Source: Candidatus Eiseniibacteriota bacterium
GTDB lineage: Bacteria; Eisenbacteria; RBG-16-71-46; SZUA-252
Assembly: GCA_003235575.1 (NCBI GenBank)
Contig: QJVW01000115.1
Coordinates: 12,290 to 76,289, forward strand
Reading direction: 5' to 3'
DNA: 64,000 nt
In this document: positions 2,775 through 45,006 of the stretch, piece by piece
Layout: each line of letters starts with the position of its first letter
Numbering within the stretch: the first letter of the stretch is position 1
The notes under the pieces: model-generated
What the model was told of the DNA's origin: nothing
Databases searched by the model: none
The model's input: only the letters and a program-made list of their open reading frames with translations
Position numbers and translations under genes: made by a program

Positions 2775-4172
<1,398 letters not shown>

Positions 4173-4337: not shown

Positions 4338-4366
4338 AATCTAGCGGACCAAAGGCGCGGTGTCAA
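4338..4366 (-). promoter_or_regulatory. Candidate sigma70-type promoter for rho (TTGACA-N17-TAGATT on the minus strand), about 160 nt upstream of the rho start
   Basis: The minus strand reads ...gggcTTGACAccgcgcctttggtccgcTAGATTtctctcg. This gives a long leader, consistent with Rho autoregulation. Confidence 0.4.
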
Positions 4367-4369
4367 GCC

Positions 4370-4403
4370 CCGTGGACCGCGGCTGCAAAACAGCCGCGAT
4401 CCA
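4370..4403 (-). other. 12-bp imperfect stem-loop (GTGGA(C/T)CGCGGC / GCCGCG(G/A)TCCAC) immediately 3' of the TPR gene stop and 5' of the rho -35 element
   Basis: Inverted repeat with one mismatch around a tgcaaaaca loop. There is no clear U-tract, so it is not a canonical intrinsic terminator. Confidence 0.3.
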
Positions 4404-4415
4404 CGGTGTTCAATC

Positions 4416-6218: not shown

Positions 6219-8252
6219 TTATAGCAGTTGGTGGGGGTCCACGTCGACGGCCCATCGCACGCCGGGAAACCGCTCCTCGCGTAGGCGGGTCAGGGTCCGA
6301 GCAAGCGTTTCACGCAGGGCCGGCCTGGAGACGCTCTTCATCAGGAGATGCCAGCGATGCTCGCCTCGGAGGCGCGCTAGGGGCATCGGAGCGGGGCCTA
6401 GGATCTGGACCGGGCGATCCGCGGCGGCCCGGCTCACCATGCGGCGCACCGCCGCACCGGCGGCTTCCACGCGCTCCAGCGTGCGGCCACGCAGCTCGAT
6501 CTCCACGATGCGGCCGTAGGGGGGATACCTGAGTTCGCGCCGCTCGGCCGCTTCCCGTTCGAAGAACACGGCGTAGTCCTGCGCGGCGGCCGCCCGAAGC
6601 GCCGGACTCGTCGGGTCGAACGACTGCATGATCACCTCCCCCGGAAGATCCCCGCGACCGGCGCGGCCCGCCACCTGCGTCAGCAGCTGAAAGGTCCGCT
6701 CGGCGGAGCGGAAGTCGGGAAGGTAGAGGGACAGGTCGGCCACGATCACGCCGACCAGCGTGACGCCGGGAAAGTCGAACCCCTTCGCGACCATCTGCGT
6801 GCCGAGCAGAAGATCCGTCTCGCGGGCACGAAACGCGCCCAGGATCGCGGACGCGGAGCCGCGTCGGCGAACGGAGTCGAGATCGAGCCGCGCAAGCCGC
6901 GCGGAGGGGAAGAGCGTCGCCACTTCGCGCTCCACCTTCTGGATTCCGAGACCTCCGAACCAGAGATCGACGGCGCCACAGGCGGGGCACCCCGCCGGGA
7001 CCTTTCTCCGAAGTCCGCAATAGTGGCACCGCAGTCCGGCCTCGTCGGCATGGACCGTGAAGGGGACGTCGCAGCGGTCGCAGTGGGCGACGTGACCGCA
7101 GCCGCGGCACTGGAGATACGTCGAGTGACCGCGGCGATTGAGAAATAGGATCCCCTGTTCGCCCCGCTCGAGCGTTCGTCCGATCGCCTCGACGAGGAGC
7201 GGCGTGATGATGCGCGAGACCGTGCTCTTGCCTCCCGCACGCCCGGCCGAGACCGACGAACGCAGATCGGCGAGACGAACCGTCGCCATCGGCCGGCGGT
7301 CCACGCGGTTCGGCAATTCGAGCAGCGCGTAGTCCCCTCGGGTGGCACGCGCGTAGCTTTCGAGGCTGGGCGTGGCGGTGGTCAAGACGACCGCGGAGCG
7401 GCTCCGCTGCGCCCGCACCAGCGCGACGTCGCGCGCGTGATACCGGGGTGATTCGTCCTGCTTGTACGCGCCGTCCTGCTCTTCGTCGATCACGGTCAGG
7501 CGCAGGTCCGGAAACGGAAGGAAGACGGCCGAGCGCGTTCCCACCACCAGATCGAGCGCCCCGTCGGCCGCGGCCCGCCACACGTCGGCGCGCTCGCGCG
7601 CCAGAAGTCCGCTGTGGTAGACCGCCGACCGCTCGAACCCGGCGCGACGAAACGCGTCGAGCGCCTGGGGGGAAAGCGCGATCTCGGGCACGAGGATGAG
7701 CGCCTGGCCGCCGGCCGCGATGGCGTGGCGCGCCGCGTGCAGGTAGACCGCGGTCTTGCCGCTCCCCGTCACCCCGTGGAGCAGGAACGGCGCGAATGAA
7801 GGAGCAGCGATGCCGGCCTCGATCGCCTCCAGCGCGCGGCGCTGATCGTCGTTGAGCGCGGACCGGACTGGCGGCGCCTCGGCGTGCCACCCCTCCTCCT
7901 CGAGGTACGCGGCGCGCGGCGCGCGGCGGCGGAGCCCCGTCGGGGAGGGGGCCGCGGCGTGCAGCACCTCGCCGAGCGAAGCGGCGTAGTAGTCGGCCAC
8001 CCAGCGCGCGAGCGAGAGGATTTCGCCGCTCACGATCAGCCGCGGCTCGGGAATGCCGGCGATGGATCGAATGCGATAGGCGGGGGCGGCGGCGGCCGGT
8101 TCGGCGCCGAGAACCGTGCCCCAGATCTTTCGGGCGCGGACGGGAACGAGGACGCGCAGACCGGGCACAACGGGCTCATCGTCCGGGAGGGCGTACACAA
8201 GGTGCTCGTGGCCGGAGATCGGGACGGGAACGGCGACGCGAACGAGGGGCAT
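6219..8252 (-). CDS. priA: Primosomal protein N' (replication restart helicase PriA)
   Basis: 677 aa with Walker A (GVTGSGKTAVYL), DEEQD helicase motif II, the Cys-rich Zn-binding region (CHYCGLRRKVPAGCPACG) and a C-terminal domain. Confidence 0.95.
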   Translation of the reverse strand: MPLVRVAVPVPISGHEHLVYALPDDEPVVPGLRVLVPVRARKIWGTVLGAEPAAAAPAYRIRSIAGIPEPRLIVSGEILSLARWVADYYAASLGEVLHAAAPSPTGLRRRAPRAAYLEEEGWHAEAPPVRSALNDDQRRALEAIEAGIAAPSFAPFLLHGVTGSGKTAVYLHAARHAIAAGGQALILVPEIALSPQALDAFRRAGFERSAVYHSGLLARERADVWRAAADGALDLVVGTRSAVFLPFPDLRLTVIDEEQDGAYKQDESPRYHARDVALVRAQRSRSAVVLTTATPSLESYARATRGDYALLELPNRVDRRPMATVRLADLRSSVSAGRAGGKSTVSRIITPLLVEAIGRTLERGEQGILFLNRRGHSTYLQCRGCGHVAHCDRCDVPFTVHADEAGLRCHYCGLRRKVPAGCPACGAVDLWFGGLGIQKVEREVATLFPSARLARLDLDSVRRRGSASAILGAFRARETDLLLGTQMVAKGFDFPGVTLVGVIVADLSLYLPDFRSAERTFQLLTQVAGRAGRGDLPGEVIMQSFDPTSPALRAAAAQDYAVFFEREAAERRELRYPPYGRIVEIELRGRTLERVEAAGAAVRRMVSRAAADRPVQILGPAPMPLARLRGEHRWHLLMKSVSRPALRETLARTLTRLREERFPGVRWAVDVDPHQLL

Positions 8253-8287
8253 GGTGCGCGGAGGATAGCACCCTGGCGTCTGCGGTA

Positions 8288-8367
8288 GGCGTGAGGGCGC
8301 GATGAAGGGTTTCGGGGTCCGACAGCGACAGCCATGCCCCCGAAACCCTTCATCGCGCCCTCACGCC
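8288..8367. repeat. Perfect 30-bp inverted repeat (GGCGTGAGGGCGCGATGAAGGGTTTCGGGG ... CCCCGAAACCCTTCATCGCGCCCTCACGCC) separated by a roughly 20-nt loop
   Basis: Read directly from the sequence in the 283-bp spacer between the REC gene stop (8536) and the priA start (8252). The stem is much longer than an intrinsic terminator stem and has no flanking T-tract. Confidence 0.8.
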
Positions 8368-8535
8368 GGCATCGGTGGAGCGACTATTCCGGACACTCGG
8401 ACGCTCCACGACGCCCGTGACGGGAGGAGAATTGTCCCTGCAGGCGATTGTCTGCCGTCGTTAGAGCCGGCGGGGACAATTCTTCTCACGTCCCGCGCGG
8501 GACGTTGGATTGGCTGACGAGGATTGCGGCGGGAA

Positions 8536-8964
8536 CTACGAGGAGGGCGTGGAGCGCTCCGACACCGTCTGTCCCAGGATGGCGTTGATCCGCTCGACCA
8601 GCTTGCGGGGACTGAACGGCTTCGTGATGTAGTCGTCGGCGCCGACGTCAAAGCCCATCTTCTGGTCGACGTTCCTTCCCTTCGCGGAGAGCAGGATCAC
8701 GGGGACGTTTCGCGTTTCCGGGTTCGACTTGACCGCGCGGCAGACTTCGTAGCCGTCCAGCTTCGGCATCATGATGTCGAGGACGATCAGGTCGGGCTTG
8801 TCGCTGCGCACGCGCTCCAGGGCCTGCTCGCCGTCGAGGGCGGTCAGCACTTCGTAGCCTTCCATCCCCAGGCTGAAGTCGAGAATGTGGACGATGTAGA
8901 TTTCGTCGTCCACGACGAGAATCCGCCCCTTCGACATCGGCTCTCCTCCCGGTACGTGTGCCAT
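8536..8964 (-). CDS. Stand-alone response-regulator receiver domain protein (CheY-like), probably starting at the internal MSKGRILVVDD (about 8937)
   Basis: RILVVDDEIYIVHILDFSL...DLIVLDIMMPKLDGYEVCRAVK...VPVILLSAKG...GADDYITKPF are canonical REC motifs (DD, D, T, K). No output domain. Confidence 0.9.
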   Translation of the reverse strand: MAHVPGGEPMSKGRILVVDDEIYIVHILDFSLGMEGYEVLTALDGEQALERVRSDKPDLIVLDIMMPKLDGYEVCRAVKSNPETRNVPVILLSAKGRNVDQKMGFDVGADDYITKPFSPRKLVERINAILGQTVSERSTPSS

Positions 8965-8972
8965 ACCGATAT

Positions 8973-11564
8973 CTATCGGCCCGCTCCGGATGCTTCTGGA
9001 GTCGGAAACGGTGGCCGATCTTGTTGCGGCACAATCAGTTCAACAAGCGTCGCCACCACGGCCTCATCGAACTGCGTCCCGCTGTGGCACCGCAGTTCCG
9101 CCACCGCCTCCTCGTGGCTGATCGGCTGGCGGTACGGCCGCCCCAGCGTCATCGATTCGTAGGCGTCGACGACGGCGATGATCCGTGCGCCCAAGGGAAT
9201 CTGATCGCCGCGCAATCCGCGCGGATAGCCGCGGCCGTCGATACGCTCGTGGTGCGCCAGAATGATTTCGGTCACGTTGGAGTGGAACTCGATCGGTTTC
9301 AGCAATTCGACGCCGCGGGCCGGATGTTCCGCCACGTGCGCCCAGGTATCGGGATCCAGCTCGCCCGGCTCGTGGAGGATGCCCGGCGATACGTGCGCCA
9401 TGCCGACGTCGTGGATTCGGGCCGCGTACGCCAGCACCGAGAGGTCCTGTTCGTTCATGCCCATCTTCCGGCCGATCGCCGTCGCGCGCTCCGCCATCGA
9501 GCCGCCCGTCAGGCGCAGGCGGCTTCGGCGGGTGTGGTCGATGATGGCCGCCAGCGCGTGGGAGGCCTGCTCCGCCCGGTCGGCGGACGCCTCGTGCGCC
9601 GAGGCATGTTCCCAGGCGCGCGCGACCCGATCCGCCAGCGACGTCAGGAGCGCCTCGTCGTCCTGCGTGAACGGGGTGCAGGAGATCTTGTTGTTGATGT
9701 TGATGACGCCCACGACCCGCTCATCCACCTTCACCGGGACGGACAGGAGCGACTTCGTTTCGTACTGGTTGTGGTTTCGTCGTCCGAACCGCTCGTCGTC
9801 TTCGATGTTGGTGATCAGGAGCGGCTGGCCGTGCTTGGCCACCCATCCCGCGATCGAATCGCCGACACGGATCCGCGTGCCGCAAACCACCTCTTCGCGC
9901 AGTCCGCGCGCGGCCTTGATGTAGAGCTCCTCCCGCTCGTCGTCGAGGAGCATGAACGACGCGATCTGGGCGTCCATCACTTCGGCGACCATCTCGACCG
10001 TGAGACGGGTCAGGTGATCGGACACCGAACGCGTCGGGGACCATGTCGCGTGGGTGATCACGTTGGCGTCGCTGGGCGTGGCCGGCAGGGAGACGTGGAA
10101 GCGGGAGCCGTGCCCCGGCTCGCTTTCCGCCGTGATCTCGCCCCCGTGCCACTCGACGATGCTCTTCGCGATCGAAAGCCCGAGCCCGACACCGGGGTAC
10201 TCGCGCGACAGCGAGCCGTCCACCTGGTAGAAGCGGTCGAACACCTTGGCCAGCTCACTCTGCGGAATGCCGATGCCGGTGTCCTCGACCGTCAGGCGCA
10301 CGGTGCTTCCCTCGCCCGCCACGCGGAACGTCGCCGTCCCGCCGCGCGGGGTGAACGTCACCGCGTTCGTTCCCAGGTTCTGCAGCAGCCGGCGAATCAG
10401 ATTCCGGTCCGCCTCGACGATCACCTCCGAGACGTCGATCGCCGCGACGAGCTGGATTCCCTTCGATTCCGCCTGGGGCTTGAGGATCGCGATCTCCTCC
10501 TCGACCAGATCGACCAGGTTCAAGGGCTCGCGGCTCATGCGGAAGCGTCCCGACTCGAGCCGCGTCAGTTCGAGGATCGCCTCGATGAGGCGGGTCAATT
10601 TCCGGGTCTGCTCGTCGATCACGCCCAGGAAGTCGCGCTGCATCGCGGTGTTCTTCGAACCAACGTGCTGTTGCAGCGCCTCGACGTACGCGTGAATGTG
10701 CGTCAGCGGGGTCTTCAACTCGTGCGAGACGGTGGAGACGAACTTGGACTTCATTTCGTTCAGCTCCTCCGCGCGCTCCGTCGCCTCCTCCAGCTGGCCC
10801 ATGCTCTCCTGCAGCCGCTGGACGAGGGCCGCGTTTTCGAGGGCGACCACCGCGTGGGTCGCCAGGATCTCGATCATCTCGACGACCTCGCGCGTGGGAA
10901 GCTTTCGGTCGGCGGGGTCGTCCACCGAGAGATACCCGATCACGGCGCCGTCCTTGCCCGACAGCGGCACGATCAGCACATCCTCTTGGTGCCACTCGCC
11001 GTCGCGCCGGACGCCGAGGTCGGGCGTCCAGCTGTGCGGGTCGTTCTCCCCCCAGAACTTGTGCTCGTGTGGGATGAAGTAGGAGCGGCCGATGCGGAAT
11101 TCCTCGCGCAGCCACGATTCGAACTCGGACGCCGGGACGTCGTAGTTCTCGAGCGCCGTGATCGCGTCGCGCTCCAGCCCCGCGAAGGCCCGCGCCTCGT
11201 AGGTTCCACTTCGAACGTTCAGCACGCGAAGCAGGACGATGCGGTAGCCGACCGCGGAGGTCACGGCGTGCACGATTTCGTGCAGCACCCGATCCAGGCC
11301 CAGGTTCGAGCTGATGGATGTTGCGATTTCCAACACCTTCTGGAGCCTGGTCGCGCGCTGCCGGCTGGTGAGGAGTTGGTCGCGGTAGAGACGCCCCATC
11401 TCCTCGGCGGCCAGCGACAGCTGCTCGTTGCGCTGCATCGCGGCGTCCAGCGAGCCGCGCAGGCGCCGCGCTTCGCGCATGGCGGTCCGACGGCGGCGGA
11501 CGGCCTCGAAGAGAAGGAGCGCCGCGGCCGCGAGCGCCCAGGAGAGCGCGTGGCCGGTCGTCAT
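8973..11564 (-). CDS. Hybrid sensor: TM-GAF-HisKA-HATPase_c-GAF-HD-GYP (histidine kinase fused to a c-di-GMP phosphodiesterase-type domain), paralog 1
   Basis: N-terminal TM segment; H-box VSTVSHELKTPLTHI; N-box RRLLQNLGTNAVTFT; G1 VEDTGIGIP; G2 GVGLGLSIAKSIVEWHGGEI; two GAF-like regions; C-terminal HD-GYP (RIHDVGM ... ILAHHERIDGRGYPRGLRGDQIPLGARIIAVVDAYESM). Confidence 0.9.
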   Translation of the reverse strand: MTTGHALSWALAAAALLLFEAVRRRRTAMREARRLRGSLDAAMQRNEQLSLAAEEMGRLYRDQLLTSRQRATRLQKVLEIATSISSNLGLDRVLHEIVHAVTSAVGYRIVLLRVLNVRSGTYEARAFAGLERDAITALENYDVPASEFESWLREEFRIGRSYFIPHEHKFWGENDPHSWTPDLGVRRDGEWHQEDVLIVPLSGKDGAVIGYLSVDDPADRKLPTREVVEMIEILATHAVVALENAALVQRLQESMGQLEEATERAEELNEMKSKFVSTVSHELKTPLTHIHAYVEALQQHVGSKNTAMQRDFLGVIDEQTRKLTRLIEAILELTRLESGRFRMSREPLNLVDLVEEEIAILKPQAESKGIQLVAAIDVSEVIVEADRNLIRRLLQNLGTNAVTFTPRGGTATFRVAGEGSTVRLTVEDTGIGIPQSELAKVFDRFYQVDGSLSREYPGVGLGLSIAKSIVEWHGGEITAESEPGHGSRFHVSLPATPSDANVITHATWSPTRSVSDHLTRLTVEMVAEVMDAQIASFMLLDDEREELYIKAARGLREEVVCGTRIRVGDSIAGWVAKHGQPLLITNIEDDERFGRRNHNQYETKSLLSVPVKVDERVVGVININNKISCTPFTQDDEALLTSLADRVARAWEHASAHEASADRAEQASHALAAIIDHTRRSRLRLTGGSMAERATAIGRKMGMNEQDLSVLAYAARIHDVGMAHVSPGILHEPGELDPDTWAHVAEHPARGVELLKPIEFHSNVTEIILAHHERIDGRGYPRGLRGDQIPLGARIIAVVDAYESMTLGRPYRQPISHEEAVAELRCHSGTQFDEAVVATLVELIVPQQDRPPFPTPEASGAGR

Positions 11565-16730: not shown

Positions 16731-16851
16731 AGCGGGGCGCCCGAGGCGCGCGGGATCCAGCGCCATTCGCGCCGTCCGGGAGCGGGGAGCCATCCCCGTC
16801 GGCGCCTGACTCACGAAGCCGGAGGGGATGGCTCCCCGCTTCCGGACCCCG

Positions 16852-17280
16852 CTACGCTCGTTCGCTGATCGCCGCGGCCAGTCGGTTCTTCGCGCGTTCC
16901 AGCGCCCGCATCGCGCGCTCGCGGTCGATGGGTTCGTCGCCGCCGGCGCCGTCGTTCTGCAGCCGCTGCTGGGCCCGTTGGAGCGCCGACTTCGCGCGTT
17001 CCACGTCGATCGCGCCCGCGACCTCGGCCGCATCGGCCAGCACCGTCGCCCGATTTCCCGATACCTCCAGAAAGCCGCCGCTCACGGCGTAGAACGAACG
17101 CTTCCCCTCTTCGTCGCGGACTTCGAGACGGCCGGGGCGGAGCGAGGTGATCAGCGGGGCGTGATGGGCCAGGACTCCCAGGTACCCCTCGGAGCCCGGC
17201 GCCTGCAGCGCGGTCACGGGCGCCTCGAGCAGCAGGCGCTGCGGCGTCACCAGGCGGAACGTGAAGGTCGTCTCGGCCAT
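16852..17280 (-). CDS. atpC: F1Fo ATP synthase epsilon subunit; the real start is the internal MAETTFTF
   Basis: MAETTFTFRLVTPQRLLLEAPVTALQAPGSEGYLGVLAHHAPLITSLRPGRLEVRDEEG...; the N-terminal beta-sandwich plus C-terminal helices of epsilon. Confidence 0.9.
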   Translation of the reverse strand: MAETTFTFRLVTPQRLLLEAPVTALQAPGSEGYLGVLAHHAPLITSLRPGRLEVRDEEGKRSFYAVSGGFLEVSGNRATVLADAAEVAGAIDVERAKSALQRAQQRLQNDGAGGDEPIDRERAMRALERAKNRLAAAISERA

Positions 17281-44745: not shown

Positions 44746-45006
44746 CGCGAAGCGACCCAGACCCCCCGCGTGGCCTCCGGCCCCCGACCCGATGCAACAC
44801 CCGGAGGCCACGCACCCCCCCTGTGGCAGTGAGGCCGGTCCCGAAAGGGATCGGCCTTCTGCTTGTAGCGACATCGCCCGTTGCCGAGCCGATTCGCTTG
44901 AGCGGGTTGCGGGTGCCGCGGGAACGGAATAATCCCCTTCTGGACGCGAACAGAAAATGCCACGGTCCCGAAGGGGATTATTCCGCGCCCGCGGCGGCGG
45001 CGCGAA

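Follow-up and report, generated by a model that had tools for sequence, protein, structure and literature searches.

What is a perfect 30-bp inverted repeat doing in the short interval between a signalling operon and the gene for the replication-restart helicase PriA? The question is raised by a 64-kb stretch of DNA (64,000 nucleotides, in the following referred to as the window) from an organism that its PriA relatives place in Candidatus Eisenbacteria. A spacer of 283 nt separates priA from the gene of a single-domain response regulator (RR), both flanking genes being encoded on the minus strand (Table 1). A first-pass annotation of the DNA had reported the repeat, here termed H1, in this spacer, and a repeat search over the window confirms it with the letters as quoted: two arms that are complementary at 30 out of 30 positions enclose 20 nt and end in GGCGTGAG and CTCACGCC, respectively. 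Given the composition of the window (67.8% G+C), chance would produce about 8e-11 inverted repeats with perfect 30-bp arms and a spacing of 0–40 nt. The RNA fold of H1 reaches -79 kcal/mol, with z = -8.0 relative to dinucleotide-shuffled sequences, and the DNA fold -45.5 kcal/mol (z = -10.3). The structured element that had been placed between the signalling operon and priA is genuine and very stable.

All 80 nt of H1 recur unaltered in L081 and L082, two further assemblies of this organism that were obtained independently from different JGI samples and whose PriA sequences are identical to PriA of the window. An assembly artefact can therefore be excluded. Among the three strain variants H1 is invariant, with about 10 substitutions being distributed over the remainder of the spacer (203 nt). 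In conclusion, H1 is a genuine element far beyond chance expectation, and it is single-copy in the data at hand.

Table 1. Position of the features discussed; coordinates refer to the window except for the H2 orthologs, which are numbered within their own loci (a dot denotes that no strand applies).
Feature	Position	Strand	Remarks
priA	6219..8252	-	677 aa; Pfam PriA_3primeBD, DEAD, Zn_ribbon_PriA, PriA_C; ATG at 8252
Probable extended -10 box of priA	8262..8271	-	GTGCTATCCT
H1 arm, priA-proximal	8288..8317	.	+ strand GGCGTGAGGGCGCGATGAAGGGTTTCGGGG; pairs 30/30 with 8338-8367
H1 loop	8318..8337	.	20 nt; minus (sense) strand reads GCATGGCTGTCGCTGTCGGA
H1 arm, priA-distal	8338..8367	.	compared with L165, 5 pairs altered on both sides
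Small middle hairpin	8375..8409	.	perfect 8-bp stem GTGGAGCG/CGCTCCAC, 19-nt loop
H2	8412..8499	.	imperfect 34-bp stem, 20-nt loop
Single-domain response regulator (RR)	8536..8964	-	last gene of the upstream HK-GAF-HD signalling operon; stop codon 8536-8538; start at 8937 in the JGI gene call
HK-GAF-HD sensor kinase	11564..8973	-	precedes RR
H3	16769..16852	.	35-bp stem, 14-nt loop; between convergent atpC and a 187-aa ORF
H4	44915..44995	.	31-bp stem, 19-nt loop; between convergent genes
H2 ortholog, L166	5842-5935		
H2 ortholog, L167	5381-5480		
H2 ortholog, L084	1758-1839		
H2 ortholog, L004	3669-3746		

Nearly the entire spacer is occupied by hairpins. Proceeding from the RR stop codon, 36 nt are followed by the large hairpin H2, which after only 2 nt gives way to a small middle hairpin; a further 7 nt lead to H1, and H1 is separated by 16 nt from a GTGnTACCAT box, which lies 9 nt in front of the priA ATG. 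H1, situated 169 nt past the RR stop codon, is the third and last hairpin of this cluster, the two others having been absent from the first-pass annotation. Clusters of hairpins located within 80 nt of a stop codon and less than 15 nt apart have been reported for inter-operon termination regions (PMC8355165), and the order observed in the RR-priA spacer fits this pattern.

At the priA end of the spacer, exactly 9 nt separate the end of the GTGnTACCAT box from the priA ATG in about 50 Eisenbacteria relatives, irrespective of the gene located upstream, and a Shine-Dalgarno sequence in front of priA is absent from the relatives examined. Consensus match and missing Shine-Dalgarno sequence together suggest that the box is probably an extended -10 element with the transcription start site 1–3 nt before the ATG. 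As a by-product of the comparison, the box thus points to a leaderless or near-leaderless priA mRNA across this group. Due to the position of the putative -10 box between H1 and the ATG, H1 would not be part of a priA leader and would appear in RNA solely at the 3' end of the upstream transcript. The earlier description, by which H1 was implied to lie in the upstream leader of priA, is hence not supported. For the same reason a 5'-UTR element or riboswitch of priA was rejected, and Rfam is likewise empty: within the spacer only generic miRNA-precursor hairpins were matched, at 14–45 bits compared with gathering thresholds of 56–168, and the one match above threshold in the window is a tRNA elsewhere. 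The end of H1 falls at about the -35 position relative to the box.

Several features of H1 resemble intrinsic terminators, including bidirectional and clustered ones. It is a G+C-rich stem-loop past a stop codon, marks the boundary between two transcription units, immediately precedes the next promoter, belongs to a closely spaced cluster and adjoins a hairpin that is orthologous to canonical terminators (see below). However, intrinsic terminators usually display a U-tract of 7–9 nt, a loop of about 3–8 nt and a stem of about 5–20 bp, whereas H1 has no U-tract, a loop of 20 nt and a stem of 30 bp. Reading the sequence directly, no run of U or T is found 3' of the stem on either strand, the sense strand continuing with UACCGCAGACGCC and the opposite strand with GGCAUCGGUGGAG, and a terminator scan over H1 returned no site. 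The first-pass annotation was therefore correct in stating that H1 is not a canonical intrinsic terminator. Its additional argument, by which stem length speaks against a terminator, is weakened by the neighboring hairpin H2, the stem of which is of similar length and which nonetheless corresponds to a textbook terminator in one of the relatives.

The order RR-priA is conserved in about 50 relatives, with a spacer of usually 34–132 nt. In distant relatives a canonical terminator is located directly after the RR stop codon, as exemplified by CGCGGGCGGCC-tcc-GGCCGTCCGCG-TTTTC in L010, L012 and L108. Orthologs of H2 are present in L004, L084, L001, L166 and L167 and, in degenerate form, in L163, and over these six orthologs double compensatory changes are seen in 24 out of 30 pairs. 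In L166 the ortholog has the outline of a textbook terminator, in which an 18-bp stem is flanked by A6 and U6. This comparison indicates that H2 occupies the place of the intrinsic terminator found in the relatives and is its elaborated descendant. Public assemblies of these loci break at the hairpins discussed here; the L001 contig (1-50), for instance, begins inside the H2 loop.

Among the relatives, H1 is less widely distributed than H2. The window and L163 are sister to L165 in the PriA tree, ((window, L163), L165). At a PriA identity of 85–86%, L165 harbors H1 at the same position, with a perfect inner stem of 19 bp, an imperfect outer stem and a loop of 19–20 nt. The loop has thus kept its length, and 11 of its 20 positions are identical to those of the window. 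Within the stem, five pairs differ on both sides and none on a single side, compared with 0–1 double changes in slid-register controls. [quoted passage not shown] Since this covariation comprises two distinct sequences only, the significance attainable by shuffling has a floor of about 1/32, the observed value being 12/500. The presence of a diverged, covarying and syntenic ortholog in L165 indicates that H1 is inherited vertically.

Comparison of orthologous priA upstream regions, which had been named as a check on the repeat, was extended beyond L165. In L163, the nearest relative (PriA identity 89–90%), H1 is shrunk to a 7-bp stem, and in the relatives of clade B (L084, L001, L166, L167 and L005) it is absent, which shows that the hairpin is dispensable. 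A candidate ortholog in L004 (GGTGAGGGCGGG...CCCGCCCCCACC) was kept out of the evidence, its interior being hidden by a gap in the scaffold together with a poly-C artefact. At the position where H1 would be expected in this locus (3926-3975), a run of N is accompanied by about 45 C, probably an artefact of sequencing or scaffolding.

The two closest relatives, and only these, carry an additional gene between RR and priA, which codes for a SAM-dependent methyltransferase of 278 aa (L163, 1805-2641; L165, 1-70). The gene lies between H2 and H1, and in L165 H1 follows it directly, with the stop codon of the methyltransferase gene falling within the outer arm of H1. Based on the PriA tree, the simplest history appears to be that the gene was present in the ancestor of the clade and was subsequently lost from the genome studied here, leaving H1 behind. 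By tblastn no methyltransferase remnant was found, and a presumed pseudogene remnant beside H1 (CGATGCCGGCG-TGA compared with CGATGCTGGCG...TGA) proved not to be significant (z = 1.0, p = 0.17). Unrelated inserts of 1.4–2.2 kb occupy the same spacer in L019, L086, L088, L009, L091-L094, L103, L104, L110 and L114. The variety of inserts, along with spacer lengths from 34 nt to 2.2 kb among relatives, identifies the spacer as a hot spot of insertions and deletions.

Hairpins of comparable size are not restricted to the priA locus. Five strong hairpins were detected in the 64-kb window, all of them intergenic, and four of the five (H1–H4) share an unusual geometry with stems of 30–37 bp, loops of 14–20 nt and an overall length of 80–93 nt. 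The fifth, at 4366-4410, is terminator-like and of ordinary form. H2, H3 and H4 each lie at the 3' end of a gene, and in the case of H3 and H4 the neighboring genes converge. By their predicted folds, H3 and H4 are of the same structural class as H1, not relatives in sequence. Next to H4, around 44838-44870, lies a terminator of ordinary type (GGCCGGTCCC-gaaa-GGGATCGGCC-TTCTGCTT).

Taken together, the location at the end of a transcription unit, the membership in a hairpin cluster, the promoter that follows, the adjoining H2 with its terminator orthologs and the conserved pairing argue for a termination-type role of H1, and from these features we infer a function in termination or insulation. 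In our judgement the chances are about even that H1 is a non-canonical, U-tract-less terminator or 3'-end hairpin which insulates the priA promoter and whose perfect pairing is preserved by concerted changes of template-switch type. Among the functions that had been listed as options for the repeat, the putative blocking or termination of transcription has the best support. In the proposed mechanism, H1 would act on the nascent transcript of the upstream unit as a non-canonical terminator or as a hairpin that forms the 3'-end, so that H1 and H2 jointly would stop or trim read-through RNA and thereby shield the priA promoter from upstream transcription. In the present genome H1 may be a partly orphaned 3' hairpin, originally situated after the small methyltransferase gene that has since been lost. 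Template switching at replication would alter both arms together and in this way preserve perfect pairing, possibly assisted by selection for the stem.

With regard to the actual step, H1 could constitute a roadblock or pause site, protect the 3'-end after Rho-dependent termination (a rho gene is encoded within the window) or be processed by RNase III. Intrinsic termination in the strict sense is doubtful for H1, because mycobacterial RNA polymerase, representing the one high-GC system tested in vitro, did not terminate at hairpins lacking a U-tract (PMC3993855). Protective hairpins at 3'-ends, such as REP-type stabilisers and Rho-trimmed ends, likewise are stable palindromes without a U-tract at the 3' end of genes. 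H1 differs from these in not belonging to a repeated family, and a simple stabiliser role fits poorly, since a perfect RNA duplex of 30 bp would be a substrate of RNase III and would probably be cut. Compared with the transcriptional step, the mechanism by which the stem is kept perfect is the better supported part of the explanation. The exclusively double and partly adjacent changes between the window and L165 represent the signature of template switching between the two arms, from which we infer this mechanism for H1.

Upstream of rho, the minus strand contains an ordinary hairpin with a 20-bp stem and a 5-nt loop (4366-4410), which follows a TPR gene. The best sigma-70-like promoter match of the region, TTGACA-17-TAGATT (4338-4366, minus strand), is located directly past this hairpin. 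The hairpin is kept in L163 and L084, where TTGACA also follows it directly.

Template switching has been documented to make perfect stems and to fix them in a single step (PMC8794818, PMC5941160), and it can yield the pattern of changes seen in H1 without any selection. This leads to the alternative that H1 is a functionless palindrome, a by-product of template switching by which pre-existing sequence was copied as its reverse complement upstream of the priA promoter. The palindrome would be re-perfected time and again by the same mechanism and be tolerated because the spacer already contains the terminator H2. Inverted repeats formed by template switching (quasipalindrome correction) indeed share with H1 the perfect arms, the multi-base compensatory changes and the preservation of perfection; as a mutational mechanism they do not define a functional class, and published examples are mostly much shorter than H1. 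The perfect arms, the restriction of stem changes to double ones and the adjacent dinucleotides are what this alternative predicts, and it would be in line with the collapse of H1 in L163, its absence from clade B and the indel-prone nature of the spacer. Moreover, a C-rich GCCCTC(A/C)C sequence resembling the promoter-side arm, albeit a weak match, is located upstream of priA in relatives lacking H1. On the other hand, H1 has been kept at the same place and with the same loop length across a PriA difference of 14–15%, and it is invariant in the three strain variants amid varying surroundings, whereas long palindromes free of selection would be expected to decay or to be deleted. Furthermore, four hairpins of the same geometry, all at gene 3' ends, would be left unexplained. 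A functionless palindrome, although the main rival to the insulator reading, is considered unlikely.

In itself H1 is one more inter-operon hairpin and matters little. Its value is that of a natural case, in the uncultured phylum Candidatus Eisenbacteria, in which a very long perfect stem has been maintained between species exclusively via double, adjacent compensatory changes, and it hence bears on the question whether covariation results from selection or from template-switch mutation. H1 also belongs to a small set of hairpins at gene ends with large loops and without U-tract, which could inform on termination and 3'-end formation in high-GC lineages, in which canonical terminators are scarce.

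Instead of acting in the upstream transcript, H1 might act as DNA, either by extruding a cruciform or as the site of a dimeric or multimeric protein that modulates the adjacent priA promoter. The overlap of H1, which ends 16 nt away from the extended -10 box, with the nominal -35 position would be well suited to such a role, as would the very stable DNA fold given above, and changes confined to Watson-Crick pairs are expected if both strands matter equally. However, 5 of the 19 inner arm positions differ between the window and L165, arguing against sequence-specific binding, and the priA promoters of about 45 relatives work without H1. Known operator palindromes are, in addition, far smaller than a 30-bp arm with a 20-bp spacer. 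An element acting at the DNA level is regarded as quite improbable.

Similarly improbable, in our assessment, is a separate RNA function, by which H1 would encode a small or antisense RNA, be a target of RNase III processing in its own right or act as the loop-loop partner of H2. Susceptibility of long perfect duplexes to RNase III would agree with the second of these options. For the third, the sense-strand loops of H1 and H2 (8318-8337 and 8446-8465) can pair along about 11 bp, interrupted by a single bulge (-17.2 kcal/mol, p = 0.006 uncorrected), but a kissing interaction was rejected, as the complementarity does not survive correction for the approximately 20 comparisons made. Also in favor of an RNA function, H2 folds better by about 9 kcal/mol on the opposite (+) strand; the difference arises because mismatches on the sense strand are mostly A.C. 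Against a separate RNA gene stand the lack of any Rfam family at threshold and of any promoter-like site in the RR-priA spacer by scan. The idea that H1 derives from H2 by inverted duplication, with the middle hairpin at the center, was prompted by a model alignment and by similarity of the loops; tests of the loops over the orthologs were weak, and the signal vanished (z = -0.02) once the central 8-bp palindrome was left out.

The first-pass annotation had also considered a REP- or MITE-like repeat. H1 shares with REPINs and MITEs a length of about 80 nt, long terminal inverted arms around a non-palindromic center and an intergenic position, most relatives have a much shorter spacer without H1, and several hairpins of similar size are present in the window. 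The insertion of such a mobile repeat into the spacer is nevertheless very improbable. A search of the window for copies of either arm returned only the two arms themselves, even with 3 mismatches allowed, although a family of about 100 copies or fewer could by chance escape from the 64 kb of genome covered. No further copy was found in about 1.7 Mb of related loci, by blastn against plasmids and phages or by an exact 22-mer scan of viral contigs (0 matches); the same scan of metagenome contigs, a collection that lacks the known contigs of the organism itself, likewise gave 0 matches. With filters switched off, a covariance model of H1 detects only H1–H4 (111, 48.8, 46 and 39.7 bits), no other match exceeding 15 bits. 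The scores of H2–H4 mainly reflect the shared shape: in Smith-Waterman comparison with shuffles, 15 of the 16 tests of H1 with the other three hairpins gave z values of about 0, and H1–H4 were rejected as one sequence family. Among those genes of the window that were screened, no associated transposase was seen. The flanks of H1 (GCGGTA and GGCATC) contain no target-site duplication, and L165 does not offer an empty insertion site, the position being occupied by the syntenic H1 that has diverged by compensatory change.

It is hardly to be expected that H1, possibly together with H2, is a dedicated regulatory device of priA, or that H1–H4, with their conserved loops of 14–20 nt, form a lineage-specific class of 3'-end elements read by a loop-binding factor. 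PriA recognises hairpin primosome-assembly sites of phiX174 and ColE1, and, if such a device existed, binding of PriA to the promoter-side hairpin or cruciform would amount to structure-sensing autoregulation of the replication-restart helicase. Nothing speaks in favor of the recombination site that had been suggested as well. Integron attC features are absent: the arms are perfect and lack the GTTRRRY core, and the neighbors are RR and priA without an integrase or a cassette array.

Long hairpins of a different kind were encountered in Pyrinomonadaceae loci that had been fetched as distant acidobacterial relatives by PriA (L034, L036, L046, L054, L055, L065 and L074). Many hairpins with stems of 30–50 bp are present in these loci, their arms being composed of tandem units of 6–8 nt such as GTGATAA/GTGACAA. 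In L073 (3706-4902), four copies of the palindromic unit CTTCGGCACGGAAGTGCCGAAG are found, which look like a REP-type family.
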